A stretch of DNA of 64,000 nucleotides. It comes from Armatimonadota bacterium. GTDB taxonomy: Bacteria; Armatimonadota; HRBIN16. The notes below the pieces were generated by a model. The model saw only the letters and a list, made by a program, of their open reading frames with translations, ran no database searches and was not told where the DNA came from. Location of the stretch: positions 2,208,001-2,272,000 of the forward strand of contig OY781964.1 in assembly GCA_963677485.1 (NCBI GenBank). The letters are read 5' to 3'. Shown one piece after another: positions 960-62,432 of this stretch. A program made the translations under genes and the position numbers. Numbering within the stretch: position 1 is the stretch's first letter; every line of letters begins with the position of its first letter.

Positions 960-1177
960 TCACGCGAAGACGCGAAGGCGCGAAGGGTTTGCAGCACGGC
1001 GTCGTTGTTTTAACCACTAATAAACACGAATGAACACAAATGGTAAGCGCACGGCAGAACGTCCTACTCGTCCTACTCATCTGACATGTCCTACACTGCA
1101 CGGGAAAACCAAAGCAAAGCTGCGAAGGGTATGTGCCTTTTATTTACCGCGGATAAACACGAATGAACGCGGATGGG
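960..1177. repeat. Cluster of short triplet tandem-repeat units (A: cacgcgaagacgcgaaggcgcgaag; B: accactaataaacacgaatgaacacaaat and accgcggataaacacgaatgaacgcggat; C: gtcctactcgtcctactc)
   Basis: Directly visible 8-10 bp periodic units; related units recur at 9031-9142, 24573, 28096, 30905-31104 and 59157. Confidence 0.85.
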
Positions 1178-1202
1178 AAGACACAGTGCGGTGGCCAGCT
1201 CG

Positions 1203-2345
1203 TTAGTGCTTCCGGCTGATGATCTCCTGCACCCTGACGGCAATGTTGGCGCCGAACAGGGCTTGACCATACGTCGACGGGTGGACGCCATCGTAGGTGT
1301 GCTGTGTCGATCCGCCGTTCTGGGTGATCGTCGCATTCAATGAGGGCACGTCGATGAGGTATATCCGTTGGTCCTTCGCTTTATGGCGCGCCGCGACCAC
1401 GGCGGTGATCTCGTCGCGGTGGGAACCTGAGCCCGGCAGCACGCAGAAAATCTGCGCGTTCGGACACGCCTTACGCACGGCGGTGGCCCATTCGAGATAG
1501 TTGCTGGTCACATCAAGGCCGCCGTAATCATTGGTGCCCATGTTGCAGAACACATAGTCAGGCTCAGGGAGCAGCAAGCCGTTCTTCAGCCGCGAGGTTT
1601 GGGCATCATAGTGATCCCAGCTCTTGTTCAGCGACGGCAACTGCATCACCCTGACCATTCCCTGTCCGCCCGAACCCAGCAGACCATACTCACAATCAAG
1701 AGCTGAGCATACGATGGGGAACCAACTGCATCTGGCGTTGTTGGGCTCCAAGATCGACCACGAGGTGAAAAGTGCCTCAACACCAACACCCTCGGTGATC
1801 GAATCGCCAAACCCGATGGCCAGTTTGGAGCGTTTGGGATAAGCTGCGATGCTGCCGCCGTCGTCCAGCGATAGGCCCGCAATGCGCAGGTGGGTGGTCG
1901 ATGCCGTCCAGCGGTTCACCATCAGGTCCGCCGCACGGAAATAGAACTCCACGCGGTGCGGCACCGAACCGTCCAACTGGCCTGATATCGGAAGCGTATA
2001 CAGGCCGCCTGTCTGGGAAAGCTGCACATGCGTGAACGGCCCTCCGTCTATGGAAAACTCCACCACCGGCATCGAGCCGGCTGGACAGTTTTCATTGGCG
2101 GTTCCGTCAATCACCACTCCAACGCTGCTGGTGCCCTTCACGATCGTCTTAAAATAGGCTCCAGGCATGGTGGCTTCCGCTCGTGCTTGATCTGCTTTAC
2201 CGGAACACTTCCAAACATATGGTGATAGCCCGAACTCTGAGCGGTCACACGGTATGGTGGTCGCGGCTTGAGCACCTCTGGCCAGGACCAATCCAGCAGC
2301 CAGTATAAGCACGGCGCAGCATGGTGTCAACATATTCATCTTCAA
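1203..2345 (-). CDS. Secreted SGNH/GDSL hydrolase (carbohydrate esterase CE2-like)
   Basis: Signal peptide; SGNH blocks FGDSITEG, GSGG, GTND, DGVHP. Confidence 0.85.
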   Translation of the reverse strand: MKMNMLTPCCAVLILAAGLVLARGAQAATTIPCDRSEFGLSPYVWKCSGKADQARAEATMPGAYFKTIVKGTSSVGVVIDGTANENCPAGSMPVVEFSIDGGPFTHVQLSQTGGLYTLPISGQLDGSVPHRVEFYFRAADLMVNRWTASTTHLRIAGLSLDDGGSIAAYPKRSKLAIGFGDSITEGVGVEALFTSWSILEPNNARCSWFPIVCSALDCEYGLLGSGGQGMVRVMQLPSLNKSWDHYDAQTSRLKNGLLLPEPDYVFCNMGTNDYGGLDVTSNYLEWATAVRKACPNAQIFCVLPGSGSHRDEITAVVAARHKAKDQRIYLIDVPSLNATITQNGGSTQHTYDGVHPSTYGQALFGANIAVRVQEIISRKH

Positions 2346-3514: not shown

Positions 3515-3794
3515 ATCAGCTACGCTCCTTCAAGATCGTCTTCATATATCGCTTTGTCGGGGATCGCTTGCGCCTTAGTGAGAGCGGAAGCACTAATAGA
3601 TTTTTTGCCTGGCAACAACAATACCTCGTGTGTGTAGATATGACCACAGCCCATGGACCGGCCCTCACATAGAGTTTAGCATCCAATCGCCGTCCATATC
3701 AGAAGCGCCGAGCCCGTGAATATGCGACGCCACCGACCGGGGCGGTTTTCTCCTAACCTCGCCGGTGGTGATCTATGCGTGACAAGGGATTTCC

Positions 3795-3870
3795 GGCTAA
3801 CCGCCAGACCGGCGCGGTCTATAGCCTTCTGTTGCCGATAGCCTACTGTCAGACCGCCCCGGACATAGCC
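3795..3870. repeat. Partial copy (right half) of the 168-bp nested palindromic element E
   Basis: ccgccagaccggcgcggtct...cagaccgccccggacatagcc matches 11419-11490. Confidence 0.85.
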
Positions 3871-3901
3871 ATGATGTTCTTGACTCCGAAATGGTTGGCC
3901 G

Positions 3902-9030: not shown

Positions 9031-9166
9031 TTGCGTCCTTCGCGTCTTCGCGTGACACCGCTCCCATTCGCGTTTATTCGTGTTCATTCGCGGTTAAAAG
9101 GCACCCCAATAGGACGGGTAGGATGAGAAGGACGAGTATGACAAGGGTTGGCGTGACACCGCTCCC
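9031..9166. repeat. Cluster of triplet tandem-repeat units A, B and C, each inverted relative to the 960-1177 cluster
   Basis: 9037-9055 is the exact reverse complement of 960-978; 9063-9094 matches the reverse complement of 1146-1177 with 4 mismatches in 32. Confidence 0.85.
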
Positions 9167-11322: not shown

Positions 11323-11490
11323 TTGCCTATGTCCGGGGCGGTCTGTCAGTACGCCTGCGGTGGCCGCTATCTATAGACCGCGCCGGTCTTGTTCCAGACA
11401 CAAATCTATCAGGGCTATCCGCCAGACCGGCGCGGTCTCGAGCCTTCTGCATCCGCTAGCCTACGCACAGACCGCCCCGGACATAGGCAA
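11323..11490. mobile_element. Full 168-bp nested palindromic element E (REPIN/MITE-like)
   Basis: Perfect 24-bp terminal inverted repeat (11323-11346 / 11467-11490) and perfect inner 15-bp inverted repeat (11375-11389 / 11424-11438); second full copy at 42731-42898. Confidence 0.8.
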
Positions 11491-11588
11491 TGCATGGCTG
11501 CAACAGAGGCGGACAGCCATTCGTATATCACACTGTCGCCTCAGCGTGACGCGTAAGTTACAGTATGGGCATTGCGGCAAAGGGCCCA

Positions 11589-12521: not shown

Positions 12522-12568
12522 GTAAATATCTCCCTTTTGGGTTATCTGGCGGCATCTGAGTGGTCACA

Positions 12569-12692
12569 CTGTCGATAGACCGCGCCCGTCTTGTTCATGA
12601 CACGAATCTTTCATGGCTCTCCGCCAGACCGGCGCGGTCTCGAGCCTTCAGTAGCCGCTAGCCTACGCACAGACCGCCCCGGACATAGGCAA
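12569..12692. repeat. Partial copy of element E lacking the left terminal repeat
   Basis: Aligns to 11368-11490 in the same orientation. Confidence 0.85.
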
Positions 12693-12726
12693 TAACGGTC
12701 CATGATAAGCAAACGCTTGAGCCTGT

Positions 12727-13221
12727 CTATTTCAGGGCTTTCAACACCTTTTGCACCTCAGCCACAGCGGACTTCTTATCGGAAGGCAGGCTGATGTTGA
12801 GGTATACCACGCCTTTACTGGCTTGCACGGTCACCGCACCATCCTGCTGCATGACAAACCCATTCCAAGGTTTCGCAGTCGGGCTGCTTTTGGTCTTGCC
12901 AAGGCTCTTCTTCCAGTAAGCCACGAAACTGGCCGCGTGCTTGGCACTTTTCATGGTATGGGCGGTGGCGGTGAGGTAGTCATTCCCCTTTTGGTAGATA
13001 CGCTGCTGCGCATCGAGAACACCGTGGTCTTGATAAAGGCCGATGCCGCCATCGTACAACCCTGTCAAGTCATTCCCGGCCACATAACGTGCAGCCGATG
13101 CCATCTCTTTCCAACCTGCCACAGCACCTTTTGGAAGTGCTTTAACGGCAGGGGTGATGGCGGGCGCGGCGATGGCCAGCATACTTGCCAGCACCAATGC
13201 CGTCGCAATGATTCGCTTCAT
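12727..13221 (-). CDS. Small secreted hypothetical protein (possibly DUF6599-like)
   Basis: Signal peptide MKRIIATALVLASML; L..LYDGG..LY motif. Confidence 0.6.
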   Translation of the reverse strand: MKRIIATALVLASMLAIAAPAITPAVKALPKGAVAGWKEMASAARYVAGNDLTGLYDGGIGLYQDHGVLDAQQRIYQKGNDYLTATAHTMKSAKHAASFVAYWKKSLGKTKSSPTAKPWNGFVMQQDGAVTVQASKGVVYLNISLPSDKKSAVAEVQKVLKALK

Positions 13222-13362
13222 GATTTTACCAACCTGTATATTGTCATATCATCGAACCGTAGTATGTCTCTGCGTGTAACCGCTGGTGGGTGAATGCCCC
13301 AAGGGGCCTCCCGCAGCCAAAGGAGTCAAAACCAGGGTTGTCGGGGCTTCACGGGCGGCAGC

Positions 13363-15084: not shown

Positions 15085-15370
15085 CCTCCCCGTGTGTGTA
15101 TATCCAGATTATACGGCATCACACGCCAAATTGTACGCATTTAGATGTAACAGCAGTTCAACTTTGGTTTAATTTTCACACTAACTGTGCGTATTGTGGT
15201 TAACAGCTGAACGGCTGGAGCTATATTGGCTGTGTTGTCTGTTTTAATGGTGATGTTGGTAGCTATCTGTACCACAATACGATACCGTAACTAGGAATGG
15301 TGTCACTTCACATAAATACAAGTACAGGATATAGATAAGCTGTCTTCTGATGTTGGACTTAAGGATAATC

Positions 15371-17368: not shown

Positions 17369-17375
17369 AACCTAA

Positions 17376-24572: not shown

Positions 24573-24933
24573 TCACGCGGAGACGCGGATGTTTTGCACC
24601 GGAAGGGATTGGTAATCCACAGATGACACAGATGGCACAGATTAGGTATCGACCGCGTCGGTTTTTAGTAGGCTCTTAATCGCCATGCAGCCCGTCTCCG
24701 GCGCGGTCTGGCGGATTGCCCTATCTAGTGGCCATCCGTGCCGCGGGTTTAGTCACCCCACGGGACTGGCGTCCCTGACGGGGTTCCTGCACCGCATGGC
24801 TGATCATTAGCGGCCGGCGTCGCTCCGCTCCGGCCGGCGCAAGGGAGGGCAGCCATCGCATCTTGAGTGCCTACATCCGGGGCGGGCTGACGGTACGCTA
24901 AAGGCGGTGGAAGGCCAAAGACCGCGCCGGTCT
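24573..24933. repeat. Composite repeat region: A-type unit (24573-24589), D-type triplet aatccacagatgacacagatggcacagatt (24614-24643) and degenerate E halves (about 24697-24724 and 24868-24933)
   Basis: Direct matches to 28109-28125 (inverted), 56998-57048 and 42731-42797. Confidence 0.75.
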
Positions 24934-25076: not shown

Positions 25077-27941
25077 CTATAAAGTACCACCATCAAGTCT
25101 GAACCCATATTGGAACCCAATCTCATCTAAAATACACCGAATATCCTTTCGACTGAGCCCTTGTTGGACGAGGCATTTTGCGTAGTTTACAGTGATATCA
25201 CTAAGGTTTGGATGGGGTGACTTCATTGTCGCTGAAATCTTCATCAGTCCTACTAGTGCACGACGAAACAAAGGAGCAGCACTATTAAAATCGCCTATAT
25301 GGGCGAGAACTCCAGCCAAGTTGTTTACACTCACCAGTGTTTTTGGATGATCATTCCCTAAAACCTGCTCGCGAGTGTCCATCGCACGCTTATACAGCAC
25401 CTTCGCACCTTTGACATCGCCTTTCTTTTCGAGAATTCCTGCCAGGTTGTTCACACTACTTAGCGTGTCGGGATGATCCGATCCCAATACCCTCTCGCGA
25501 ATCTCCAACGTCTGATGGTGTAATAACTCCGCGTTAGCATCGTCACCGATACGTACAAGCACAAAAGCTAGGTTATTCATGGTGCTTAGTGTGTCGGAAT
25601 GCTCAAACCCCAGCACACGCTTGCGTACCTCAAGCACATTTTCGTATAGCTCCTTCGCGTTGTCTAAATCACCTTTACTATCTAGGATCCCTGCTATATT
25701 AAATGCAACCATCAACGTATCACGATGCTCTGGGCCAAATGCTTGTTCGCTGTATCCCATTGCACACCGGAATAACTGCTCTGCGTTATCGTAATCGCCT
25801 TTAGCCGCCATCAACTCAGCCATGTTGTTCATTGTCGTAATTGTGATGGGGTGTTCAGGTCCCAAGAGCCGATCGCTTGCCTCATATGCACGTTGGTAGA
25901 GGAGCTCAGCGCCTACCCAGTCACCAATTAAGTATAAGACCAAACCCAGATTGGTAACCTCAGTGATGGTTATTAGATCGTCGGCCCCGAGTATGGTTTC
26001 AAGAACCTCGATTTCTCTGCGCAATAGGTTTGCGGCATCATTATATTTGCCAATTTCCTTCCATTGCATGGCGACCTTTTTAGCTATCCATGGTCCATGA
26101 TCCCAAACCTTCTCATCTAACAATAAGTGGGCCAAGGCACTTAGAGGTTCGACTTCCCAACGGTTGTTTCCGGCAAGACTCTCTTCCTCCAGAAATGCAC
26201 ACCGTTCCCGAGCGAGTGTGGTCAGACAGTTTATATGATTCTCAGCATCGTGATCGTTGCTTCGTACCATTTCTCCTACCAGTCGGTGCATGCGCAGAAG
26301 GTTTGGCTCACTGGCCTCGCCGTCGACACGGCTGAACAGAGCCAGCCGCAGGAGCCTTTGCCAGAGTTCGCGCCATGGATCGGCTACGAGCCGCGTGGGC
26401 TGGAGTATTTCCGGGAAATCTTTACCAACCAATTCGCGTAACCATGGCAGCACCACGTACTCGGGAGGCAGGTGTGCAGCGTACTCGAGCAGGCGGTGTT
26501 CGATGGGTTTCAATTCCTGCAACACCGGGCCAAACACGGCACTCAACCGGCGTTCGTGGTTATGCCGGCGCAGTTCCACGTCCTCATCGCCTGCGATGTC
26601 TTCCAGGTCTTGCAACCCCAATCCATCGGCAAATACCACATAGTCTGAGCCGGGATGCGCAGCCAGATACGCAGCCACCAATTCTACCGCAAGCGTAAAG
26701 CCACCTAACCGTTTCACGATATGACCGGCCGCCACGCGATCCGCGTCATTGACTAAAGGTCGATGTTTTTCCAGCATGGACAGGGCGTCGAGATCGGGCA
26801 GTTCGCTCAAGGTAAGCCAATTACCACCGGTCGGCGGGAGCAAGCGCGTGGTGGCCAGCAGGTGAAGCTTTGGGCCGAGAGTGGTGAGGCAATCAATCTG
26901 CTGCGGGCTGACGAGGGCAGAGTCAGAGACATTGTCCAAGACAAGCAGGATGTGGCCCTTGTCGGCGAGGCGCGCAGCCAGACAGCGGGCTACGGCGGCA
27001 AAGTAAGTTTCCGTCGTCTTGCGTTCATCGTCGCTGATGTTCCGTTGGATATCGTGGAAATCACCGAGGCAGAGCACCGCTTGTTGCAAGCTCTCCTTGC
27101 CGTCGCACGGGATCAGGAACCGTCCGCCAGGATATGCGCTGGCAAAGGCGTGTGCGTAGGTGAGGGCCAACTCGGTCTTGCCGATACCACCTAGCCCATG
27201 CACGCCGCAGACCACTCCGGCCTGATCGTCTTTGAGGCGCTTTCTCAGTTCGAGTAATTCGTCAATTCGGCCGGAGAACATCTTGTTGTAGGGTGGAACG
27301 GTGGTTTCGCTTGTAGCCGCGGTAGAAACAAGTTGCGCGTGATGGTTCAGGTCTTGGGCTAGAGTGCTGAGCACGCGATGCAGGTCATCGCGGCGCAGTG
27401 CGTCAATCCCTTCGTCCGCGAAGGGTTTGGTAAAGTCCGTTAGAAGCTGGCGGCGGCGGACTTGTTTGACGACCGGAGCGGTGGAGGCAAGAAAGACCTC
27501 ATAGGGCGCAGGCACTCCGCACAGTTCGGCGACCTTTAGTGCGACGGCATTATCGTCCAACGCTCCTTTGCCTATAAAACCGGGCACTTCGACCAAATAG
27601 ACCGGGCGTACTCCTTCGGTGAGGATGTGCTTGGCGATTTCGGTGTCTATCCACGCCCGCCATTCGCGTCGACACCAATCGCTAGCGAAGTAGTTCGGTG
27701 AGATGAAGGCCAAGAACATCCGGGATTGGGCGATGCCATGAAGCAGGGTGTGTTCCCAATCGCGCCCCACCTCAATGTCTTTTTTGTCGAAGAACTCCTT
27801 CAGAGGGGGGAGGTCGGGGAAGAATTTGGCGTGTTCGGCCTTGAGTTCCTTGACGAACTCCGTGACCCAGCCAGTGGTATTGTCTGCTTTGGCGTAGGAG
27901 ACGAAAAAGTCGAATTTGTCAGTGTCTCTTGTTGTGGCCAT
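25077..27941 (-). CDS. TIR - NB-ARC/STAND ATPase - TPR protein (bacterial NLR-like, putative anti-phage)
   Basis: TIR: FFVSY...FFD..I..G..W...SPNYFASDWCRRE; Walker A GLGGIGKT; Walker B LLVLDN; MH.L winged-helix motif; about 42-aa LGxxHPxTL..xNNLA TPR repeats; start set at MATTRD with SD GGAG. Confidence 0.92.
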   Translation of the reverse strand: MATTRDTDKFDFFVSYAKADNTTGWVTEFVKELKAEHAKFFPDLPPLKEFFDKKDIEVGRDWEHTLLHGIAQSRMFLAFISPNYFASDWCRREWRAWIDTEIAKHILTEGVRPVYLVEVPGFIGKGALDDNAVALKVAELCGVPAPYEVFLASTAPVVKQVRRRQLLTDFTKPFADEGIDALRRDDLHRVLSTLAQDLNHHAQLVSTAATSETTVPPYNKMFSGRIDELLELRKRLKDDQAGVVCGVHGLGGIGKTELALTYAHAFASAYPGGRFLIPCDGKESLQQAVLCLGDFHDIQRNISDDERKTTETYFAAVARCLAARLADKGHILLVLDNVSDSALVSPQQIDCLTTLGPKLHLLATTRLLPPTGGNWLTLSELPDLDALSMLEKHRPLVNDADRVAAGHIVKRLGGFTLAVELVAAYLAAHPGSDYVVFADGLGLQDLEDIAGDEDVELRRHNHERRLSAVFGPVLQELKPIEHRLLEYAAHLPPEYVVLPWLRELVGKDFPEILQPTRLVADPWRELWQRLLRLALFSRVDGEASEPNLLRMHRLVGEMVRSNDHDAENHINCLTTLARERCAFLEEESLAGNNRWEVEPLSALAHLLLDEKVWDHGPWIAKKVAMQWKEIGKYNDAANLLRREIEVLETILGADDLITITEVTNLGLVLYLIGDWVGAELLYQRAYEASDRLLGPEHPITITTMNNMAELMAAKGDYDNAEQLFRCAMGYSEQAFGPEHRDTLMVAFNIAGILDSKGDLDNAKELYENVLEVRKRVLGFEHSDTLSTMNNLAFVLVRIGDDANAELLHHQTLEIRERVLGSDHPDTLSSVNNLAGILEKKGDVKGAKVLYKRAMDTREQVLGNDHPKTLVSVNNLAGVLAHIGDFNSAAPLFRRALVGLMKISATMKSPHPNLSDITVNYAKCLVQQGLSRKDIRCILDEIGFQYGFRLDGGTL

Positions 27942-28095: not shown

Positions 28096-28127
28096 CCCCT
28101 CCGCGACCTCCGCGTCTCCGCGTGAAA
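28096..28127. repeat. A-type triplet unit cccctccgcgacctccgcgtctccgcgtgaaa
   Basis: Identical 32-bp copy at 31073-31104; 17-bp perfect inverted copy at 24573-24589. Confidence 0.9.
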
Positions 28128-30626: not shown

Positions 30627-31104
30627 CCTCGTCCCCGCGCCCTAAAGGACACGGCTTATTATCCGAAAAGCCGGCTAAAGCCGTCTGCCGGAGGTCTGTA
30701 AACCGGAGCGGGATACGGCCAGCCCGATTCATCGGGCTTTTCGTTCAATTAGCCGCAGGGCTTTCAGCCCGCGGCCGTGGGCGCAATCGATTATATCAGC
30801 CCATCACCCCTTCCTCATGGCTAACCGCCAGACCGGCGCGGTCTCGAGCCTTCCGCAACCGCTAGCCTACGCACAGACCGCCCCGGACATAGCCAAACCT
30901 ATCCCTCTTCGCGCCTTCGCGCCCGCGCGTGAGCTGTGCTCTTCGCGGTTGGCTTAGGACCGGTAGGATGAGTATGACGAATAGGACAACCGCCAATCCT
31001 TCGCGCCTTCGCGTCTTCGCGTGAGAATGCCTCCGCCTTTTCGCGTCTTCGCGTGAGCCTCCCTTACCTCTCCCCCTCCGCGACCTCCGCGTCTCCGCGT
31101 GAAA
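30627..31104. repeat. Stack of repeats: family F palindrome (30627-30778), right half of element E (30816-30896), four A-type units and one C-type unit (30905-31104)
   Basis: All units match copies elsewhere in the window. Confidence 0.85.
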
Positions 31105-44579: not shown

Positions 44580-44605
44580 TAGGTATCCTCCAGGGAGCTA
44601 GATTA

Positions 44606-46849: not shown

Positions 46850-46876
46850 GTAACAACCGGAAGCAAGAGGGCATAT

Positions 46877-47899: not shown

Positions 47900-49116
47900 A
47901 CAGGCTTTCGGGCGATGTGAAGATACTGATCGGGCTGCTGTTGTTCTTGATCATAATGGCCTGTCTCTTTAGCGGAAGGCAGCCAGACGATGGGACTATG
48001 GATTATGTGCCTATACGCAGCAGCTATTCTGTCCGCCGAGGTGGAGTCAAAGCCCTTTACGACACACTAAAAGCCATTGACTATCCCGTGCAGCGTAATA
48101 CCTCGGAGTTAACCGCACAGATTGATGATGGTGTGCTGTTTGTGATCTCTCCGATAACCCCCATATCACAACAGGAGTGGGACGCGCTGGCCCAGTGGGT
48201 GCATCGTGGGAATCTATTGGTATATGCCTGTGATACTGCGCAAGTACCAGAGGAGTTTGACAAGGATCTGCAGATATCCCATTCCGCTCCTTCAGCACCC
48301 TCGTTCCTGACGCCAGGTGTGCGCAAGGTCGATATCTTCGGTAGATTCCGCACCGATACTGAGATGCAGTTTTCGGAATCATCCGAGGCACCACCAAAGA
48401 TAGTCACGCGAAAGATAGGAATGGGTGCGAAACCCCGGCGCGTAAGCAATGCACCAAGGCTGTCGATCATTCCGCTGTTTTCCGATAGCGCGGGAACCGT
48501 GGTGGGCTACAGCCGGTGGGGGCGTGGTGAGGTCATTACTCTGGCTGATGGATGGTTGCTTTCGAATCGTGGCATCAATCAGGGCGACAACTTCCGAATG
48601 GTGCTAAACGCGCTGCAGCACCAGAACCCGACGCGAAAGCTGATGGTCACCTTCGATGAGTATCACCACGGGTATGGTGGTCAGAAGGGTATCATGTCGC
48701 TGATCGACCTGCCTGCGAAAATCGGGCTCGGCGTGATCGCGGTCGCCTTCATACTGCTGGTATTTTCGGCATCACGCCGCTTCGGTAAACCCATTCCGTT
48801 GCTGGAGGAGGGGCGGCAGCGAGGGGAGTATCTCAGCTCAATGTCTGCTCTGCTGAGAAGGGGACGAGCCACCGAACTGGTGCGTCAGGAGCTAGGACAG
48901 CGTTTCCTTTCTGAGACGGCGATCGCAGTTGGAGTCGCACCGGAATCCAAAGTAGACACCATTATTTTAGCCGCGGAGAAGCGGTATCCCGATAAGGTGG
49001 CCGTGCTTCGTGAACTGTGCGAGGCGGCCGTATCCAATGCCCCAGTAAATGACGAGACAGCCATACTAACGATGGCCAGACGATGGCACAAGATGAAAGA
49101 GGAACTGACAAAATGA
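47896..49116 (+). CDS. DUF4350 domain protein
   Basis: SSY....G..ALY, WV..G, G.GEVI, N..I...DN, FDEYHHG, RFG.P motifs. Confidence 0.85.
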   Translation: MNRLSGDVKILIGLLLFLIIMACLFSGRQPDDGTMDYVPIRSSYSVRRGGVKALYDTLKAIDYPVQRNTSELTAQIDDGVLFVISPITPISQQEWDALAQWVHRGNLLVYACDTAQVPEEFDKDLQISHSAPSAPSFLTPGVRKVDIFGRFRTDTEMQFSESSEAPPKIVTRKIGMGAKPRRVSNAPRLSIIPLFSDSAGTVVGYSRWGRGEVITLADGWLLSNRGINQGDNFRMVLNALQHQNPTRKLMVTFDEYHHGYGGQKGIMSLIDLPAKIGLGVIAVAFILLVFSASRRFGKPIPLLEEGRQRGEYLSSMSALLRRGRATELVRQELGQRFLSETAIAVGVAPESKVDTIILAAEKRYPDKVAVLRELCEAAVSNAPVNDETAILTMARRWHKMKEELTK

Positions 49117-50060
49117 CGGTTTACGAACTGGGAGAATATCTCAGAGGCGAAATGAGAAAAGTGATCGCAGGCCAGGACGATGTCATCGAGCAGATGATCG
49201 TCTGTCTGCTCTCAAAAGGGCATGTGTTGTTGGAGGGTGTGCCGGGCATCGCTAAGACATTAATCGCAAAAACCATGGCGCACGTGATAGGCAGCGAGTT
49301 TAAGCGCATCCAGTTCACGCCAGACCTGATGCCGACCGATGTCACTGGCACCTATGTTTATGACTCTAAAACGTCCGAATTCCGACTGAAAAAGGGGCCG
49401 GTATTCACCAATGTGCTGCTGGCAGACGAAATAAACCGAACACCGCCTCGGACGCAATCGGCCATGCTGGAAGCGATGGAAGAGAAGAAGGTCTCCATCG
49501 ATGGCATTGAGCATCTGCTGGACGGTGTGTTTTTTGTGGCGGCCACACAGAACCCCATCGAATACGAAGGCACCTACCCGCTGCCTGAGGCGCAACTCGA
49601 CCGCTTTTTAATGAAGCTGCTTGTGGACTATCCAGGTGAGGGTGATGAACTGGCTGTGGTACGTCACTCGCATGAAGGGTTCAACCCGCATGATCTGGCG
49701 GCTGCGGGGCTATGTCCCCTTGAAAATGCTCAGATACTGACGGATGCCTTCCACGAAGTGCAGCAAGTCAAAGCCGATGACGGCGTGATCAAGTATGCAG
49801 TGGCTATCGCCCGCAAGAGCAGAGAGGCTTACCGCGTAATCCTTGGGGCCAGCCCGCGAGCCTCGGTGGCGCTTCTCAGATGTGGGAAAGCTCTGGCGGC
49901 ACTTCGCCAGCGCGATTACGTGACCCCTGATGACATCAAAAGCCTGGCCCTTCCCATCTTGCGCCATCGGTTAATTTTGTCGCCGGAATGTGCGATCGAG
50001 GGAGTAAAGGCCGATGAAGTAATAGCATCGTTATTGGCCTCTGTTCCTGTGCCGCGATGA
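49113..50060 (+). CDS. MoxR family AAA+ ATPase
   Basis: GHVLLEGVPGIAKT, RIQFTPDLMP.D.TG, LADEINR, ATQNPIEYEGTYPLPEAQLDRF, GASPR. Confidence 0.96.
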   Translation: MTVYELGEYLRGEMRKVIAGQDDVIEQMIVCLLSKGHVLLEGVPGIAKTLIAKTMAHVIGSEFKRIQFTPDLMPTDVTGTYVYDSKTSEFRLKKGPVFTNVLLADEINRTPPRTQSAMLEAMEEKKVSIDGIEHLLDGVFFVAATQNPIEYEGTYPLPEAQLDRFLMKLLVDYPGEGDELAVVRHSHEGFNPHDLAAAGLCPLENAQILTDAFHEVQQVKADDGVIKYAVAIARKSREAYRVILGASPRASVALLRCGKALAALRQRDYVTPDDIKSLALPILRHRLILSPECAIEGVKADEVIASLLASVPVPR

Positions 50061-51421
50061 GCATTCCGAGCAAACCAGTAAAGCCGCGGATCTACCCCAC
50101 GCGACGCCTTGCTGCGGCAACGGCGCTGGGGTCGATTTGGTTCTTTGCCGCAGCCTGGACTGGCCCGGTATTACTTTGGATTGGTGCGTTCTATCTGCTG
50201 ATACTGCTGGTTCTGGCGGTGCTAGACAGCCGTTACGTCGCCGATTCGCGCGAATGCAGTGTCTCCAGAAGCATCGACACAGTGCTATCGCTGGGTGAGC
50301 CGAACGCCATCTGGGTGGAGGCCGTACACCGCGGCAAACAGTTCATCCGGGTAGTCGTGAGAGACGAGCCTCCGATTGACTACCGCTGTGAGAGCTCCAT
50401 TGTTCGGTTTGAGCTGCAGCCGGAGGAGACCGCGAAGGCCAACTACAAAGTCAAACCGCTCGAGCGAGGCGACTACCAGTTCGGCGATGTGAATGTGAGG
50501 TTCACCACCCGTCTTGGGCTAGTGATGCGCCAGGTCGTGGTACCCTCCCAAGTGATGGTGAAGGTATACCCGGACGTATTCCAGACCAAGAAGCATCTCA
50601 TCTTAGCTCGAGAGAACCGCGCGAACATGATGGGCTTGCGAAGGTCAAGGATGTTAGGGCAGGGGCAGGAGTTTGAACGTCTGCGTGACTACGTGCCGGA
50701 CGACCCGCTGAGGCATGTAGACTGGAAAGCCACCGCGCGTCGGGGCAGTTTAATCACCCGCGAATACAACGTTGAGCAGAGTCAGAACATCATGATCGTG
50801 CTAGATATGGGGCGCACCATGGCCAGCCGAACCGAGGAAAGCGACGGCCAATTGGGCATGAGCAAAGCGGACTACGCCATCAACGCCGCGATATTGTTGG
50901 CCCATGTCGCGGCGGAATCGGATGATAGAGTAGGGTTGTTCTGTTTCGCTAAATCCCCGATAGCCTTCCTTGCTCCGGGTAAGGGTGCTGCTCAAGCTGC
51001 GGCGTTGATGGAGACGTTATACCCGCTTCAACCGCGTATCGAGGAGTCGGATTACTACGAGAGCCTGGCTCTGTTGAGCCACCGGCAGAGGAAGCGATCG
51101 TTGATATTCCTGCTGACCGACCTGGTGGATACCGAGTCTTCACGTTCGTTGATTTCAAGCGTGGCGATGCTGGTGCGGAAGCACCTTGTGGTGTGTGTGG
51201 CCATCGCAGATTATGAGCTGCCCTCGATCGTCGCTGCTCAGCCCGAACGTGTCTCCGATCTGTATACGCAGACGGCGGCAGCCAGCGTGATGCGCGACCG
51301 TAAGTCGGCACTCTCACAGCTTTCGCGGCTGGGTGTGGTGACGCTGGATGCCACGCCAGCGGACCTTTCTGTGGCGACAGTGAATAAGTACCTACAGCTG
51401 AAGCGCGAGGCACGGATATAA
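50057..51421 (+). CDS. DUF58 (vWA-like) domain protein
   Basis: G.EFERLRDY.PDD.LR.VDWKATAR, MIDAS-like D.GRTM, DRVGL, LTD. Confidence 0.93.
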   Translation: MSIPSKPVKPRIYPTRRLAAATALGSIWFFAAAWTGPVLLWIGAFYLLILLVLAVLDSRYVADSRECSVSRSIDTVLSLGEPNAIWVEAVHRGKQFIRVVVRDEPPIDYRCESSIVRFELQPEETAKANYKVKPLERGDYQFGDVNVRFTTRLGLVMRQVVVPSQVMVKVYPDVFQTKKHLILARENRANMMGLRRSRMLGQGQEFERLRDYVPDDPLRHVDWKATARRGSLITREYNVEQSQNIMIVLDMGRTMASRTEESDGQLGMSKADYAINAAILLAHVAAESDDRVGLFCFAKSPIAFLAPGKGAAQAAALMETLYPLQPRIEESDYYESLALLSHRQRKRSLIFLLTDLVDTESSRSLISSVAMLVRKHLVVCVAIADYELPSIVAAQPERVSDLYTQTAAASVMRDRKSALSQLSRLGVVTLDATPADLSVATVNKYLQLKREARI

Positions 51422-51688
51422 CACTTCGTGTGTTGACGGCGCCAATCGTGTGGTAGCCCGTGATAGTCATGGAGCACCCTTCCGGCGCGCTTTATCGGAT
51501 AGCCCTCCCACTACGCGGTATGAATGGCTGTCCGGTCGAGTCGTCATGCGGCAACCATAACAGCAACTCCCCCCAACCTTCGAGTGCTTGATTGCCAGTT
51601 GCGCAATCTGATCTGTGACCAGTGGTGATAAACGAAGGCGATGGGACTTATTGGTGATCGGCGGAACCCCACCGTCACAGTCAGGAGC

Positions 51689-52186
51689 TCATCCGCTGTG
51701 TTCCCTCAAACAGGCACCCCAGCCCTTGCTATGTGGTCGCGGCAGACCAGCCAAACAGCACAGACCGAAGAAAGTGAGTGCCGGCACCAGTAGAATTTCT
51801 ACAGAGGTGACCACTATGATCATGAACAGATTCAGCCGCTCGTCCGGGTTATTGGGGGGGGCCATGGCCATCAGATACAGTGCATACGCAGTATAGGTAG
51901 CCAGTATCACACCATAAAACGGCCAGTAACGCCGCAGCAAACAGGCAATACACACAAACAACATGGCCGTCAGGGACTGTTCCACTAGACCCGCCAGGTA
52001 GTTTGTAGACTGCGTACCCGACTGGTTTGTGCTGGACATGGCGTTCGGGATAAACCAAAACAGCCCCATCACCACGCCCGTTAACAACAGCATCACCACA
52101 TATGCAGCGACCAGTTTCGGGTTTTCTGCAATATCCTTCGACAGCGTACCGAATACACATGCCAGGTTCGTCCGTATTTTGTCCAT
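51689..52186 (-). CDS. Hypothetical membrane protein (about 4 TM)
   Basis: Hydrophobic helices; SD GGAG upstream; co-oriented downstream of the prepilin gene. Confidence 0.55.
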   Translation of the reverse strand: MDKIRTNLACVFGTLSKDIAENPKLVAAYVVMLLLTGVVMGLFWFIPNAMSSTNQSGTQSTNYLAGLVEQSLTAMLFVCIACLLRRYWPFYGVILATYTAYALYLMAMAPPNNPDERLNLFMIIVVTSVEILLVPALTFFGLCCLAGLPRPHSKGWGACLREHSG

Positions 52187-55010: not shown

Positions 55011-55102
55011 GCGTGCGGGAGCCGTTGACATTGGCTTGATGCCAACGGCCTAAAGACCAGCCTATTACCCACAAATACATAACGCACGATAGCGATCTTC
55101 CG

Positions 55103-55315
55103 GGCACCCACGAAGTGGGTAGCAGTTCTTATAGCCACGGGTGAGCGCCAGCGAAACCCGTGGTCTACGATGTACCATTCCTACCCCGAAGTGGGTCGCA
55201 CCGGATGGTCACGGTAAACGACCCACGTTCGTGGGTAGATGGTGTCGGACAATCCTCCACGGGTTGCGCTTCGCTTACCCGTGGCTATAAGAATCCTACC
55301 CACTCCGTGGGTGCC
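55103..55315. mobile_element. 213-bp palindromic non-autonomous element (IS200/RAYT-type REPIN-like)
   Basis: About 60-bp near-perfect inverted arms 55103-55163 / 55257-55315, each containing hairpins; inner inverted pair 55181-55198 / 55219-55238. Confidence 0.7.
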
Positions 55316-55584
55316 GGACCATCAAGAGCACATTATATGTTTTGTCCACACCATGCCCAAAACCAAAACTCGAGTTGTGCGTCATAAAAGGGGCTTTCAA
55401 CCCGCGACAGGTGAACAATCGATTTGTGACCTGCGGGTGGCTCCGATCTATATTTGCAGGATATGCTTTGTGGGTAATAGGCTGTGCTTGAACGCGTGGC
55501 GAAAACACCCAGACCGCACCCCTCCTTGTCTTCTCTCTCCTCCTGTAGAATGTAGATGTAAGTAGCATATACTGGGAGGACATC

Positions 55585-56997: not shown

Positions 56998-57048
56998 AAT
57001 CCACAGATTACACAGATTACGCAGATTAGGTAGTTGACCGAGCCGGTT
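56998..57048. repeat. D-type triplet repeat aatccacagattacacagattacgcagattagg
   Basis: Matches 24614-24663 including the downstream ta..gaccg.g.cggtt. Confidence 0.8.
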
Positions 57049-59026: not shown

Positions 59027-59156
59027 TTGTGAGTTCTCCATATGGTAGTGCCGCCATATGGTATTCTGCCACCATCGCCTGTGGCATGCCACATTCATTT
59101 TGGAGAATGGAGGAGCGAGAAGGTAGAAGCGACTATGGAAACGATGCCTATAATGT

Positions 59157-59320
59157 CCTACTCCACCTACTCGTCCGACTTGTCCTATGGCCCGGCGGGT
59201 AACCCATCCGAGAGTCTGTCCACATATTACGCAGATTGTCGGGTGGAAAACCACGGAGCCCATTGGCGATCCCGTATATTCCATCCTGTCACTGCTTCAA
59301 ATCCGCGTAATCTGTGGTTC
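59157..59320. repeat. C-type unit (59157-59188) plus a 102-bp element with inverted D-type ends (59219-59320)
   Basis: tccacatattacgcagatt...aatccgcgtaatctgtggttc; related element at 62314-62432. Confidence 0.65.
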
Positions 59321-59359
59321 AGACACACAGCAAATGGAACGCACCCGGTCCTCATCTGG

Positions 59360-61966
59360 TCACGGTCCAGAAACGCGCTCAGCATCCCACCGAAACTGCA
59401 CAAAATCGGGGTCGGTGTCTTTCCAGTCGTTTCGCGAGCCCTTGAGCGTCTTGCCGTCCTCAGACATGGTGAACTTGGCACCTCCGCGAAGTGTGCCGTC
59501 ACGGTTCTTCCACTTCAGCCTAACTACCTTCCCGCTGACCGTTCCATCGAGGCTGCCGTCACCACCCCAGGTTCCGGTAACTCGGTTTTCCTCCTGCAGC
59601 ATCACAATCTCACCCCAGTCACCCCAGGTCGTCTTCCAGGTGCCTGTAAATCCCGAAGTAATAGCCGGTGGCGGCGGAGCGGAACCCTCTACGCCTTTAC
59701 GTTTGGCATCCCAGCGGTATCGGGCTTCATCTGATCCCACTTGATCATTCCTACTACCGGTGATGAAGTTCGCGTCAGCCGACAGGGTAAACTTTGCGCT
59801 GCCTGCGAGCCCTGAAGGGTCGGTCCATTTCAAGCGAGCCACATTGTTTTCCACCGTACCTTCCAGTTTGTGCGTGCCCCCATAATAGGTACCTGTCACG
59901 CGCGTGCCATCCTGCTGCAGCACGAACTCACCCCAGTCACCCCATGTCGTGCTCCACGTGCCGTTAAAGTCATGTGGTGTCTCTTCAGGCCATCCTCCCG
60001 TAGGCTGATCGACGCGCGTCGGTTGCAAATCGCCGTAGTTTCCGCCAGGGCTGGAGGGGCTGGTCGGCTTGGAGTCGACGAGTGCGCCTCCCGTCGTGCC
60101 GGTCACGCTCCGCTCCATTCCAGAGCTAAGGGTAAATGGCGCAGCATCTGCGGCCGAGGGGGTCACCCTCACATAACCAAACTGCACAGTGATGGTACTC
60201 TTCCCAGCCGATGGATTGTGCTGCACTACGAAGGCTGTTCCCTGGGCCTCCACCCCGCACAACGGCGTGGTCACTCGGTATGTCTCGCCCTTGAGGGGAA
60301 CAACCGTCGATGCGACCGTGCCGTTTCGCAGGGTGACTTGTCCGTCTTTACCCTGCGATCCCAGCGATGCTTCTGTACCTTCCGCGAAAGTGGCAATCCG
60401 TCCTCGCGGCAGCTCTACCACCGCACTCCCGCCCGTTCCTGTGCGGATCGACGATCCCGCTTTCAACGCCTCGAAGGTCTTGCCGGGACGCCAGCCAACA
60501 GAACCGGCTGGCCGCACAGAAACATCTCCTGCAACAGATGCCAGGCTGACGCCACCTGCAGTAGGAGCAGGTGGGGCGACGGGTGCCGGTTCGCCTGGCT
60601 GAGAGACAGCGAGCATTCTTGGATCGATGGTGGTGGGTTGCGGTGGTTTCACGGCTTCGGGAACTGTGATATCCATAATCTCCATACGCACGATCTCGGT
60701 GCCAGGCATGATGGCCCCCGTTGAGCGCTTGAATATCCACTTCAATATCACGGGCGATTCAGAGGCAGATCCTCTCACCTCAAGCCACAAAGTTGGCTGA
60801 GTGATGTTGTCGGCGGACGGGGTAAATGGTACCCGCATTGTGGCCTCTTTGGGGTAGTTGGGCGGGTCACTCTGCACATAAAGCGAATAGTTCGAGTTGT
60901 CGGCTTCGCTGGCTCGATCACCACGTACATTGTGCCAGCCGTAGACGGTAAGCACTGCCACCGGGTCGCTCGTGATGCGTGCTTTGACGACGATGTCGTC
61001 TCCTTCGACGATCGTGCCGCCAGGCCCAAGCGAGGTATCCCAGGTGAGAGTGCTTGTGCCTGACCTCCCTCCTTTTGTCAGCGTATATGTCAGCGACTGC
61101 CCTGGCTGATATTTGAAACCCTCAGGCAGATTGCCAACAACGCCCGTAGCAATTTGTAACTCGGTAGCTCCGTTGGTGCCCACCCACATCTTGCGTGACA
61201 AAACCTCTGCGGGTTTAGCTTCATTGGCAGTAAAGGGGCACGACTCCCTGGCTGGTTCGCTGAACCAGGAGTTCAGATATACCTCCCATCGGTATACGCC
61301 TGAGGAGGGCACCCTGGCCCGGAATGCAGATTTAACGATTCCTGCACCCCGCACGGCTTTCACTCTACGAAAGGCCTTGGTACTGACACTCTTGCCGTCT
61401 GGTCCGACGAGTTGAACATATTCCATGATCTCGTGCATTCTGGCCTTAGAATCTGAGATGTGGTATTCGAGGTTAAGTGTGACGGGCTCACCAGCCGCCA
61501 CCTTGAGAGGGTTCACTTTGGCGGTGTCGATGGTCATTGTGCAGTCAAGTTTTTTATCGCTGTTGCCGGTTAAGTCAGGAAGAGGCATACATCCGTGATA
61601 ACGGGCGCGAAGCACCAGCCGTTCTATCCTGCGTGTTTTCGGTTCATACACACCCGTCAAAACCCACGCCTCGCTGTCTAATGTCTCTTCAACACAGGCC
61701 ATCAGCATGCCCGTCCTGGCTATCAGTATGCCCGAGATGGTTGCGTTGCCCTCAGAAGTTGTGATCGTGCCGGAGATAGTCCAGCCGATGCCGACGATGG
61801 GCACTTCGCGATGGATGTAGAAGCCCCATTTGTTAGGTATTTGGTCGAGGTAGAAGCATTCAGGTATGTCAGATGGCGAATCAGCTTTTTGGGCTCCTGC
61901 GCATGTGGAAAGCAACAGTAATACGAGAATAACGATCCAGAACGATCTGCGAACGATGGAGAGCAT
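59360..61966 (-). CDS. Secreted multidomain protein with FecR domain and two tandem C-terminal beta-barrel repeats
   Basis: Signal peptide; FecR motifs IRTG..., VTTP...A.GT.F.V, V..G.V.V; duplicated F.GTW.TTWGDWGE...RWDA.R units. Confidence 0.75.
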   Translation of the reverse strand: MLSIVRRSFWIVILVLLLLSTCAGAQKADSPSDIPECFYLDQIPNKWGFYIHREVPIVGIGWTISGTITTSEGNATISGILIARTGMLMACVEETLDSEAWVLTGVYEPKTRRIERLVLRARYHGCMPLPDLTGNSDKKLDCTMTIDTAKVNPLKVAAGEPVTLNLEYHISDSKARMHEIMEYVQLVGPDGKSVSTKAFRRVKAVRGAGIVKSAFRARVPSSGVYRWEVYLNSWFSEPARESCPFTANEAKPAEVLSRKMWVGTNGATELQIATGVVGNLPEGFKYQPGQSLTYTLTKGGRSGTSTLTWDTSLGPGGTIVEGDDIVVKARITSDPVAVLTVYGWHNVRGDRASEADNSNYSLYVQSDPPNYPKEATMRVPFTPSADNITQPTLWLEVRGSASESPVILKWIFKRSTGAIMPGTEIVRMEIMDITVPEAVKPPQPTTIDPRMLAVSQPGEPAPVAPPAPTAGGVSLASVAGDVSVRPAGSVGWRPGKTFEALKAGSSIRTGTGGSAVVELPRGRIATFAEGTEASLGSQGKDGQVTLRNGTVASTVVPLKGETYRVTTPLCGVEAQGTAFVVQHNPSAGKSTITVQFGYVRVTPSAADAAPFTLSSGMERSVTGTTGGALVDSKPTSPSSPGGNYGDLQPTRVDQPTGGWPEETPHDFNGTWSTTWGDWGEFVLQQDGTRVTGTYYGGTHKLEGTVENNVARLKWTDPSGLAGSAKFTLSADANFITGSRNDQVGSDEARYRWDAKRKGVEGSAPPPPAITSGFTGTWKTTWGDWGEIVMLQEENRVTGTWGGDGSLDGTVSGKVVRLKWKNRDGTLRGGAKFTMSEDGKTLKGSRNDWKDTDPDFVQFRWDAERVSGP

Positions 61967-62313
61967 CACGGACCTCCCGGTCTTCCGCGATGGGTCGGAT
62001 TGGCGGCAAAACATCGATCTAACCAACCCATCGCTTTCGTCACGGCACCCTGTGTGCAGGTGCTGATGGCTGTTGATATGACGAATGATTAATAGTCGGC
62101 ACAGTTTAGAGGATAACTATAACCATAGTGTACCTTCTGGTGATGCATAAATCGGGTAAATATGGCCAACAGAACGAACATGAACAGGTATATGCTGTTC
62201 GACAGGCTTGGCTATCGTCGGTACGGAACTGTGAGTCATATCCTCGATGATGTCCATGATGCTGCCCGAGCTTCAATGCCTTGTCCTCTGGCACACAACC
62301 CATCGAACTCCTA

Positions 62314-62432
62314 TCCCCAGATGACGCGGATCGACGCAGGTATAACGGGGAAACAACAGAGCCAAACGACGGTTTTCCGTTACCGGGTGGGGTAATCCTA
62401 TTTCTTTACCAAATCCGCATAATCCGCGGTTC
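62314..62432. repeat. Element with inverted D-type ends, related to 59219-59320
   Basis: tccccagatgacgcggatcgacgcag...caaatccgcataatccgcggttc; shared internal ggaaa...gagcc. Confidence 0.6.

Follow-up and report, generated by a model that had tools for sequence, protein, structure and literature searches.

Among the closest described systems are the REP and REPIN sequences with their RAYT (Y1 HUH) transposase, reportedly described by Nunvar in 2010 and by Bertels and Rainey in 2011. MITEs and the ends of Tn7 and Mu, which carry subterminal repeated binding sites, provide a second point of reference, and the cyanobacterial STRR sequences, which are heptamer simple-sequence repeats, a third. 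In Coxiella, 23S rRNA intervening sequences carry an S23p/four-helix-bundle ORF and are regarded as selfish in the available text of the source (PMC4990558). The available text on the GGGNATC heptamer repeats of Xanthomonas and Nostoc reports a four-unit preference and the formation of G-quadruplexes (Rehm 2015, PMC4692102). The triplet repeats between genes that we describe here are genuine. They represent small selfish DNA elements of a widespread family that is apparently undescribed, and we found no published description of it.

In the window (the whole 64-kb stretch of DNA analyzed here), all five mixed stacks of repeats picked out by a sequence-only reading were located at the positions claimed. 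The first stack contains, on the + strand, an A array with a TCA end and three CGCGAAG words of period 8 (960..987), a B array with a TTAACC end and CACGAAT-type words of period 10 (1010..1043), a C array of GTCCTACTC words of period 9 (1061..1095), and a second B array (1144..1177) that is a direct copy (77%) of 1005-1047. In the second stack (9031-9145), on the − strand, an A array (9031..9056), for which the relative G001 has a degenerate copy at the corresponding site, is joined by B and C arrays (9066..9143) that G001 lacks there. Within 9031-9166, modules were added to the resident arm externally, on the side that faces the gene, and not in its interior. A 16-bp direct repeat, GCGTGACACCGCTCCC, surrounds the 9066-9143 modules, with its first copy at 9050-9065, before the B array, and its second copy beyond C; it is a single case, not a general target-site duplication. 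The third stack (24573..24646, + strand) consists of A' (CGCGGAG, two units) and D (CACAGAT, three units) arrays, is kept in G001, and forms the left arm of a pair around a TIR plus TPR (NLR-like) gene (25080..27941, − strand). The right arm of this pair is an A' array (28098..28125, − strand), a 90% direct copy of 31073-31114. The fourth stack, on the − strand, combines A, C, and A arrays (30906..31025), which fall within ∼173 bp (30867-31039) lacking in G001, with A (two units) and A' arrays (31040..31102), which lie on the promoter side of the 31226 gene and are kept in G001. The fifth contains a C array (59155..59189, + strand) and a D-type hairpin element of canonical polarity (59215..59325). 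Beyond the five stacks we found the array at 28098-28125, a D array that is an 85% copy of 24602-24648 (57002..57028, + strand), and a weak pair of two-unit + and − arms upstream of a FecR-domain gene (62318..62434; fold z = −0.57).

The sequence-only reading had proposed at least four unit families, each of about three imperfect 8- to 10-bp repeats and, in A, B, and D, with a conserved outer end, and this description proved accurate for A to D, with two or three units dominating. Using gene calls from a crude codon-usage caller made for this analysis, we counted ∼870 arrays in intergenic DNA of the whole genome, each with two to three words of 8 to 10 bp. Arrays of period 8 to 10 numbered 814 in intergenic DNA, vs 57 in a Markov-3 simulation of the same DNA. 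Periods 8, 9, and 10 were dominant (368, 616, and 310 arrays, respectively), and 717 of 741 runs had two or three units (309 with two, 408 with three, 18 with four, and 6 with five). The A, B, and D words match CRCRRAK, and their TCA/AACC ends are as at cassettes of other genomes; the C words fall outside this class. The arm downstream of one GxxExxY gene (L072) was read as consisting of C-like words. Three consecutive CRCRRAK words had 432 matches in the genome, of which 428 were intergenic, as had been suggested from the window, and none in simulated DNA (2 Mb). A consensus built from 180 A copies reads gTcTCACGCGAAGACGCG, and arrays in other phyla likewise start with YTCA. The conserved end is real as the outer end of an intergenic element, not as the end of a gene cassette.

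Neighboring arrays were mostly co-oriented (182 pairs in the same direction vs 53 in opposite directions), and the linkers in co-oriented stacks measured 9 to 17 nt, with the families in no fixed order. The conserved end (TCA…) was directed toward the nearer gene in 319 of 428 arrays (odds ratio, 8.6) and in 586 of the 837 arrays of the TRF array set. Among neighbors facing in opposite directions, the order + then − prevailed over − then + (90 vs 29). An inverted partner with the same word was present within 600 bp for only 126 of 871 arrays, while 558 had no partner in inverted or direct orientation within that distance, and about half of the listed canonical arm pairs were judged heterologous by eye. 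As same-word partners are few and half of the pairs are heterologous, we can only infer that solo arms originated from hairpins. Multi-module units also occur in higher-order tandem copies, e.g., near 0.519, 1.529, 3.495, and 3.614 Mb. Target-site duplications were not found: direct repeats of at least 12 nt in the flanks belonged either to other arrays or to larger units copied in tandem.

The genome encodes two GxxExxY PD-(D/E)XK nucleases (0.55 and 4.81 Mb) and one four-helix-bundle protein (2.74 Mb), and all three genes lie between inverted word arrays. A' words with a TCTCA end flank the first GxxExxY gene, and period-7 words surround the four-helix-bundle gene. The elements have the anatomy [TCA-words> ... 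<words-TGA], with the GxxExxY gene enclosed in the full form. The arrays of the window share words and ends with these cassette arms (A' at the first GxxExxY gene; A, B, and D through CRCRRAK). The likely enzyme is encoded elsewhere in the genome, as had been supposed. None of the abundant families D, B, H, and C has a copy with a gene in this genome, and we detected no remnant nuclease ORFs in it at an E value of ≤0.01. The suspected link of such repeats to GxxExxY and four-helix-bundle genes held in other genomes: CRCRRAK arrays were present in the flanks of 15 of 20 GxxExxY loci from 20 genomes, with a clean order of forward arm, gene, and reverse arm at 7 (8 by eye) and whole hairpins beside the gene at 5, and inverted arms spanned 10 of 12 four-helix-bundle loci. 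The words at the latter loci were read as 7-mers, and CRCRRAK words were absent from their arms; each gene family thus has its own word class. The GxxExxY motif and the catalytic residues D68, E78, and K80 were invariant in all 20 sequences. A search with the structure model of the nuclease (pLDDT, 95.3) gave weak, generic PD-(D/E)XK matches, the best being Cas4 SSO0001 (E = 1.4e-3). The three Y1_Tnp (PF01797) genes of the genome, another candidate for the enclosed family, have other, palindromic repeats in their immediate flanks, and word arrays surround only one of them, further out than its own repeats.

The arrays resemble the REP/RAYT system in several respects: short intergenic copies number in the hundreds beside a single enzyme gene or a few, inverted copies flank these genes, the elements accumulate in the spaces between genes, and relatives differ patchily in carrying them. 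Unlike REPs, however, the arms are tandem words rather than a single palindrome, and most copies are single and do not fold. Four co-oriented stacks of the window folded no better than shuffled sequences (z = +2.69, +1.66, −0.85, and +1.02); the only folded locus with two mutually pairing arms was 59215..59325 (z = −4.87 vs shuffled). Given these values and the 558 partnerless arrays, we do not classify the arrays as REPs or REPINs. Nor do they form REPtrons, since the Y1 HUH genes have their own palindromic repeats and the arrays are associated with a PD-(D/E)XK nuclease rather than with a Y1 HUH protein. As in MITEs and at the ends of Tn7 and Mu, the ends are polar, direct copies of a short motif point inward, and nonautonomous copies outnumber autonomous ones, but the ends often belong to different word families, there is no DDE transposase, and the lack of target-site duplications speaks against assignment to this class. 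The dominance of periods 8 to 10 and of two or three units excludes the heptamer STRR class, which has period 7 and a variable, frequently high number of units. The GGGNATC and STRR repeats likewise are short-period tandem repeats of few units, overrepresented between genes and near gene ends, but a conserved end, inverted arms, and an associated gene, all seen here, are not described in the available text (PMC4692102), and the present sequences have periods of 8 to 10 and no G-tract. The 23S rRNA intervening sequences share with our elements a small ORF of the same family within inverted ends (available text of PMC4990558), whereas the elements here have word arms, lie between protein genes, and in their main class carry a nuclease gene. 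Intervening sequences sit in a 23S rRNA helix and are excised from the rRNA, but every array of the window lies between protein genes, and an Rfam search of the window gave no match.

We surveyed 151 genomes of the phylum and found at least one array in 78 and none in 73, with 0 to about 500 arrays per genome and counts near 0 for a reversed-pattern control. GxxExxY genes occurred in 41 of the 47 genomes with at least 10 arrays vs 16 of the 104 others (odds ratio, 37.6; Spearman coefficient, 0.73; both raw with respect to phylogeny and genome size). Contrasts within families lean in that direction. In one family (f10), arrays were confined to a single genome, G120 (95 arrays), which is also the sole GxxExxY carrier there; one genome, G002, had 57 arrays but no GxxExxY gene. 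The distribution is patchy among relatives: within family f1, the genus of the window has 57 to 462 arrays per genome vs 0 to 9 in its sister genus. Many phyla outside Armatimonadota carry the words. The exact A-type array, with the same YTCA start, occurs in at least 123 loci from many bacterial phyla and methanogenic archaea, with an inverted arm downstream in 52 A-type loci vs upstream in 10.

Taken as a whole, the triplets are probably the arms of small elements whose full form carries a nuclease gene and which are mostly orphaned in this genome. An element consists of a conserved end (TCA/AACC) with two or three tandem words of 8 to 10 bp, an interior, and words of the same kind inverted with their end. 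In the putative autonomous form, the interior holds the gene for an ∼120-aa GxxExxY PD-(D/E)XK nuclease between CRCRRAK-type words, and a parallel class combines 7-bp words with a four-helix-bundle ("23S IVS protein") gene. Almost all copies in this genome are gene-less, mostly single arms, arranged head to tail and pointing inward from the flanking genes. New elements may insert in or beside resident ones, in nested or abutting positions; multi-module units would then duplicate in tandem, and deletions would remove inner parts more readily than the gene-proximal arm. By analogy with REPs and the RAYT transposase, the nuclease may recognize word arrays and drive or maintain their spread in trans, with mobilization set against decay. 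The anatomy, the polarity, the tie of genes to arms, and the turnover are observed here; the mobilizing enzyme and the mode of insertion are proposed. What lies between arms (the TIR-TPR gene; a RAYT unit together with REPs) probably represents secondary insertions into repeat-rich gaps.

The sequence-only reading had instead taken the arrays for recognition ends or recombination hot spots that shuffle accessory-gene cassettes of the host. They are indeed polar ends of a cassette-like element family, but the shuffling of ordinary accessory genes is improbable. The TIR-TPR gene does lie within one A' arm pair, and this pair is present in G001 without the gene (homology jumps window positions 24884-28095, between G001 positions 1677283 and 1677311, where a short unrelated stretch stands instead); one RAYT gene is enclosed in a mirrored nest (H+ A+ [REP-RAYT-REP] A− H−); and exact inverted matches of 17 to 19 nt link 960 with 9031 and 24573 with 28098. 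Pairs around accessory genes exist, but they are no more frequent than chance, and their orientation is random: 16 brackets around one gene had the order + then − vs 8 with − then +, the counts with up to three genes between were 27 vs 24, and those for pairs sharing a word family were 2 vs 3. Of 23 genes or gene runs that the closest relative lacks at the corresponding position, arrays flanked 3 on both sides, 8 on one side, and 12 on neither side, and 14 of 46 such borders carried arrays vs 394 of 1,548 long intergenic gaps overall. Synteny with G001 was broken at 21 of 65 gaps with arrays vs 29 of 262 without, an enrichment that shrinks to a modest 20 of 62 vs 19 of 99 in gaps of at least 150 bp. 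Other repeats are a confounder: these gaps also contain MITE-like repeats of 230 bp, which extend to the borders of the indels. The arrays do not mobilize host genes, and varying genes are not preferentially flanked by them. That the ftsEX and MoxR operons contain no arrays, as the sequence-only reading had noted, is explained by the close spacing of their genes.

Turnover of the arrays is fast: of 87 arrays in gaps collinear with G001, 25 were conserved, 14 were absent, and 48 were unalignable. Because the gaps are unalignable, few sites can be called cleanly as filled or empty, and no movement event was caught in this analysis. These data also bear on whether the arrays serve the host as tandem binding sites of a plentiful DNA-binding protein with a nucleoid, insulator, or termination function and are kept by selection, which we regard as quite unlikely. 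Orthologous arrays of G000 and G001 keep the core words while the spacer bases vary, 69 arrays begin within 40 nt of a stop codon, and where GC skew is strong, 116 of 178 runs had their word strand on the leading strand. Against this stand the conservation of only 25 of 87 arrays at ∼87% gene identity, the near absence from the sister genus and the complete absence from 73 of 151 genomes, the sharing of the same words across phyla and domains with a horizontally moving nuclease gene, and the lack of orientation relative to the flanking transcription unit (240 vs 222).

It is similarly hard to see the arrays as RNA-level hairpins that stabilize or terminate transcripts or guide RNase III processing, as in 23S rRNA intervening sequences, and we give this little credence. 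Compared with shuffled sequence, the D-type pair at 59215-59325 folds much better, and a full cassette would enclose its ORF in a long stem, but the co-oriented stacks fold no better than shuffled controls, most arrays have no partner within 600 bp, and mismatches between arms on the transcribed strand were G:U compatible in 29 cases vs A:C type in 24. Enzyme-free origin by slippage or unequal exchange, as for STRR heptamers, with small genes landing in the repeats, would agree with the unit-number changes between orthologues and the tandem multi-module copies but is unlikely in view of the conserved terminal motif, the sharp two- to three-unit preference, identical words in distant phyla, a separate word class for each gene family, and an array load strongly tied to the nuclease gene.

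If the arrays are arms of nuclease-bearing elements, hundreds of unexplained intergenic repeats per genome in many phyla gain a biological context, as do PF13366/TIGR04256 and TIGR02436, which are very large families of small proteins of unknown function. A further step is more tentative: GxxExxY proteins may possibly be minimal PD-(D/E)XK nucleases that read tandem CRCRRAK words and spread or maintain word-arm elements in trans across bacteria and archaea, as the enzymes of a novel type of mobile element. As parts of that same doubtful extension, they would be the nuclease counterpart of REP/RAYT, with a parallel heptamer system of the four-helix-bundle genes and with the element interior as a favored landing site for other DNA, here the TIR-TPR defense gene and a RAYT unit. 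Should the nuclease read the words, the two would make up a novel, very compact enzyme-site pair, and the elements a novel class of selfish DNA. The arrays mark fast-evolving gaps between genes. They also break short-read assemblies and cause spurious N- or C-terminal extensions in annotated proteins.

The five stacks of short tandem words described in the sequence-only reading are present in the sequence as described, with extra array copies at 28098-28125, 57002-57028 and 62318-62434. As read in the window stacks, family A has the form TCACGCGAAG ACGCGAAG GCGCGAAG, with a variant, A', that carries CGCGGAG words. In family B, a TTAACC or TTTACC end precedes period-10 words of the form CACGAAT or CGCGGAT; in family D, the end is TAATCC and the words, of period 9, are CACAGAT. 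Family C reads GTCCTACTC. Most families reduce to a single degenerate word, CRCRRAK. The reported number of about three units per array holds (runs of 2, 3, 4 and 5 units numbered 309, 408, 18 and 6), as does the conserved end, since the family A consensus (n = 180 copies) is gTcTCA, then the words, then GGg. Tandem Repeats Finder returned 1,920 nonredundant arrays from the whole 5.22-Mb genome, with a sharp peak at periods 8, 9 and 10 (368, 616 and 310 arrays). By the gene calls of our own, crude caller, 860 of the 1,506 arrays with periods of 7 to 11 lie outside genes, the nongenic share of the genome being 15.6%. Arrays of period 8 to 10 number 814 in intergenic DNA and 57 in a Markov-3 simulation of it, and three CRCRRAK words with 1 to 3 spacer bases match 432 times, 428 of them intergenic, with no match in a 2-Mb simulated genome.

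The arrays had been proposed to pair around accessory genes. To evaluate this, we sorted array-bearing gaps by array orientation (+ only, 186; - only, 156; both, 102) and counted successive array-bearing gaps. With exactly one gene between them, the order + then - occurred 16 times and the order - then + 8 times (P = 0.15). With up to three genes between, the counts were 27 and 24, and they were 2 and 3 when the two gaps also shared a family. As these counts do not favor enclosure, ordinary genes are not enclosed as cargo. Exact matches of 17 to 19 nt between any two A copies are to be expected with approximately 170 similar A copies in the genome.

Enrichment of arrays at the borders of variable genes was likewise not borne out by comparison with the closest relative, a member of the same genus with genes ∼87% identical, from which 0.8 Mb was fetched and orthologues were found for 414 gene calls of the window's genome. 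In 23 islands carried by the window's genome whose flanks are adjacent in the relative, arrays were found at both borders, one border or no border in 3, 8 and 12 cases; 14 of 46 island borders thus carried arrays, compared with 394 of 1,548 long gaps genome-wide. Across 327 adjacent gene pairs, synteny was broken in 21 of 65 gaps with an array versus 29 of 262 without, and when only gaps of at least 150 bp were considered, in 20 of 62 versus 19 of 99. The enrichment at synteny breaks is modest, and the same gaps also carry other repeats.

Clean filled and empty sites were mostly unalignable: among 87 arrays in collinear gaps, 25 were conserved, 14 absent and 48 unalignable. Two arrays adjoining the gene at 31226 are kept in the relative, and the A-, C-, A- arrays at 30867-31039 are missing there. 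The unit A'+ D+ ... A'- encloses ∼330 bp in the relative, and its interior in the window's genome also holds a 3.2-kb TIR-TPR gene; the left border of this indel falls in an arm of a MITE-like element. Downstream of the URO-D-like gene, the relative has a D array where the window's genome has A, B, C and B. Upstream of the gene at 9206, the relative has only a degenerate A array; in the window's genome, B and C stand on the gene-facing side of A. The block at 42590-51695 (RDD, SpoIIM, DUF4129, DUF4350, MoxR and DUF58) has no nucleotide match in the relative at an E value of ≤1e-20 except for a 70% identical MoxR paralogue, so this housekeeping-looking MoxR operon either varies between the two species or has diverged strongly.

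Within gaps, the arrays are strongly polar. Of 837 arrays, 586 had the conserved end toward the nearer gene (odds ratio, 5.4; P = 2e-31), as did 319 of the 428 arrays in the pattern-defined set (odds ratio, 8.6); this polarity was seen in all four gene-orientation contexts. Ends facing the 3' end of a gene lay at a median of 94 nt from it, with 69 arrays within 40 nt, and those facing a 5' end lay farther off (median, 182 nt). In tandem gene contexts, array orientation was independent of which way the flanking genes ran (240 versus 222). Neighbors no more than 80 bp apart were co-oriented in 182 cases and opposite in 53, with stack linkers of 9 to 17 nt and no fixed order of modules or families found in the stacks. 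Among opposite-facing neighbors, + then - (n = 90) exceeded - then + (n = 29), so that gaps resemble the layout gene, TCA-words>, <words-TGA, gene.

Most arrays lack a close same-word partner: within 600 bp, 126 of 871 have an inverted partner, 230 a direct one and 558 neither. Judged by eye, about half of the listed canonical +/- pairs unite different word families. The co-oriented window stacks showed no folding advantage over shuffled sequence (z = +2.69, +1.66, -0.85 and +1.02). Two +/- arm pairs were also folded, and only one of them is a strong hairpin: the D pair at 59215-59325 (z = -4.87). Arm mismatches oriented by the flanking genes were G:U in 29 cases and A:C in 24, and no Rfam family scored above threshold in the window. 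Target-site duplication was not found as a general feature of the arrays. In a single case, a 16-bp direct repeat, GCGTGACACCGCTCCC, has its first copy at 9050-9065; the copies lie on either side of the B array, the second beyond C by our reading of the sequence. Contigs of four sequencing runs over 13000-32999 came from the same strain, with no differences in the long pieces, and break at repeats; they gave no junction or circle evidence, the joints being repeat-graph ambiguities.

The previously suggested association of such repeats with GxxExxY nuclease genes and four-helix-bundle genes agrees with the flanks of these genes, both here and in other genomes. The window's genome encodes two GxxExxY proteins (TIGR04256, PF13366) and one four-helix-bundle protein (TIGR02436), all distant from the window, and all three genes are enclosed by inverted word arrays: A' arrays at the first nuclease gene, CGCAAAG arrays at the second and 7-mer CAGGAGT arrays at the four-helix-bundle gene. 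Among 20 GxxExxY loci surveyed, taken from as many genomes of the phylum, 15 were flanked by CRCRRAK arrays. A clean arm-gene-arm layout was seen at 7 loci (8 by eye), with the forward arm 40 to 160 nt upstream and the reverse arm 20 to 60 nt downstream; the others with CRCRRAK flanks had whole hairpins beside the gene (n = 5), the inverse order (n = 2) or a partial arrangement (n = 1). Four loci had other words, three of them from genomes without CRCRRAK arrays. At four-helix-bundle genes, inverted arms spanned the gene in 10 of 12 loci; their words read as 7-mers, and none was CRCRRAK. As the flanks of the two gene families differ in words, each family has its own word class, which speaks for a functional link between the protein and its words.

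The residues G23, G25, E28, Y31, D68, E78 and K80 are invariant in all 20 GxxExxY sequences, and with D68, E78 and K80 the nuclease triad is thus intact. No solved structure was found by sequence for the GxxExxY protein; its structure model, of high confidence (pLDDT, 95.3), gave weak, generic nuclease matches in Foldseek, with Cas4 SSO0001 first (E = 1.4e-3), followed by Cas4 Pcal_0546, AdnAB, lambda exonuclease and Hjc. A search of the window's genome at an E value of ≤0.01 found no nuclease pseudogenes, so the copies without a gene are not the remains of full cassettes that decayed recently. The frame of the first GxxExxY gene (G000:C1, ∼554300-554830, minus strand) runs on through the downstream A' array, adding a tail of ∼45 repeat-derived residues; such read-through probably explains the odd repeat-like termini of annotated proteins in this family.

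Arrays and nuclease genes also co-occur across genomes. Among 151 genomes sampled from the phylum, 78 have CRCRRAK arrays, and copy numbers range from 0 to ∼500, with a reversed-pattern control near zero; three genomes of the window's genus have 462, 291 and 57 copies, and the sister genus has 0 to 9. A GxxExxY gene was found in 41 of 47 genomes with at least 10 arrays versus 16 of the 104 genomes below that number (odds ratio, 37.6; Spearman correlation, 0.73, with related genomes not independent). Larger genomes tend toward both arrays and GxxExxY genes, yet many large genomes have neither, and several within-family contrasts agree with the link. The four-helix-bundle gene occurs in 72 of the 151 genomes, many of which lack CRCRRAK arrays; this would be expected of a gene that uses other words. 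An exact scan for triple CGCGRAG gave at least 123 loci, again with a YTCA start; among the matches listed were loci from Acidobacteriota, Chloroflexota, Planctomycetota, Verrucomicrobiota, Alphaproteobacteria, Gemmatimonadota, Cyanobacteria, Lentisphaerota and methanogenic archaea. Among the 123 listed, an inverted arm lay downstream in 52 and upstream in 10, with none within 150 nt in 62.

The triplets are best read as the arms of elements from a widespread family that is linked to GxxExxY nucleases, with a heptamer class linked to four-helix-bundle proteins. Reading them as arms accounts for the window-wide system, its conserved ends and an enzyme encoded elsewhere; of the polar system first proposed, the conserved ends and the remote genes of the likely enzyme stand, and the enclosure of ordinary genes does not. 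Elements may insert into or beside resident ones (compare the mirrored nest H+ A+ [REP-RAYT-REP] A- H-), multi-module units may be duplicated in tandem, and deletions may spare the gene-proximal arm. Such steps would suit the inward-pointing, co-oriented and largely orphan arrays found here. By analogy, we infer that the nuclease may mobilize the arrays in trans, as RAYT does REPs. The genome's own three RAYT-type genes go with different, palindromic repeats. We found no published description of the word arms in the literature on GxxExxY, intergenic short tandem repeats or the inverted repeats of IVS/four-helix-bundle genes. In the parts consulted, PMC8934634, PMC3424549 and PMC3936711 touch on the GxxExxY or four-helix-bundle families only in passing, Steczkiewicz et al. 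give PF13366 as a family whose function is unknown and which has undergone multiple transfers, and Rehm et al. (PMC4692102) describe heptamer repeats without associated genes or arms.

The three RAYT/IS200-type Y1 transposase genes are at loci L208, L209 and L210 (the last at G000:C1:4121413-4122739). Palindromic REPs of the type GGCACCCACGAAGTGGGTA / CCACGGGTGAGCG..CCCGTGG border two of them, and one of these REP-RAYT units is surrounded by word arrays in mirror arrangement (H+ A+ ... A- H-).

Replichore bias was considered and rejected. When the genome was divided at the skew minimum and maximum, the odds ratio was 2.4, yet GC skew is flat over 1 to 3 Mb, where most arrays sit; the strong-skew regions are a negative one, from 4.75 Mb round to 1.0 Mb, and a positive one, from 3.25 to 4.75 Mb. 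There, runs divided 116 versus 62 (65%), near the 60% gene-strand bias. Given this similarity, the flat skew and the position of dnaA (1.204 Mb), we draw no mechanism from it. Array density is ∼50 to 95 per 250 kb in the flat-skew zone versus 2 to 12 near 4.5 to 5.2 Mb; the window falls in this zone and has a gene order scrambled relative to that of the relative.

Other repeats share the window. The MITE-like palindromic element (∼230 bp, with 67-nt inverted arms, TTGCCTATGTCCGGGGCGGTCTG ... AGACCGCGCCGGTCT) has fuller copies at 11323-11550 and 42671-42898 and partial copies at 3749-3873, 12567-12693, 24867-24933 and 30773-30897. It has many copies in both genomes and lies at several indel or synteny borders, including the left TIR-TPR border; its ∼45-nt units form tandem runs elsewhere. 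Another dispersed repeat, of ∼270 bp and matching both strands, lies at 55054-55386 and has dozens of copies in the relative at 70 to 79% identity. Tandem paralogue pairs with 69 to 81% DNA identity occupy 15350-19678 (CBM9/DUF5916), 19775-22687 (without Pfam hits) and 33149-37698 (WbsX-like/Laminin_G_3).
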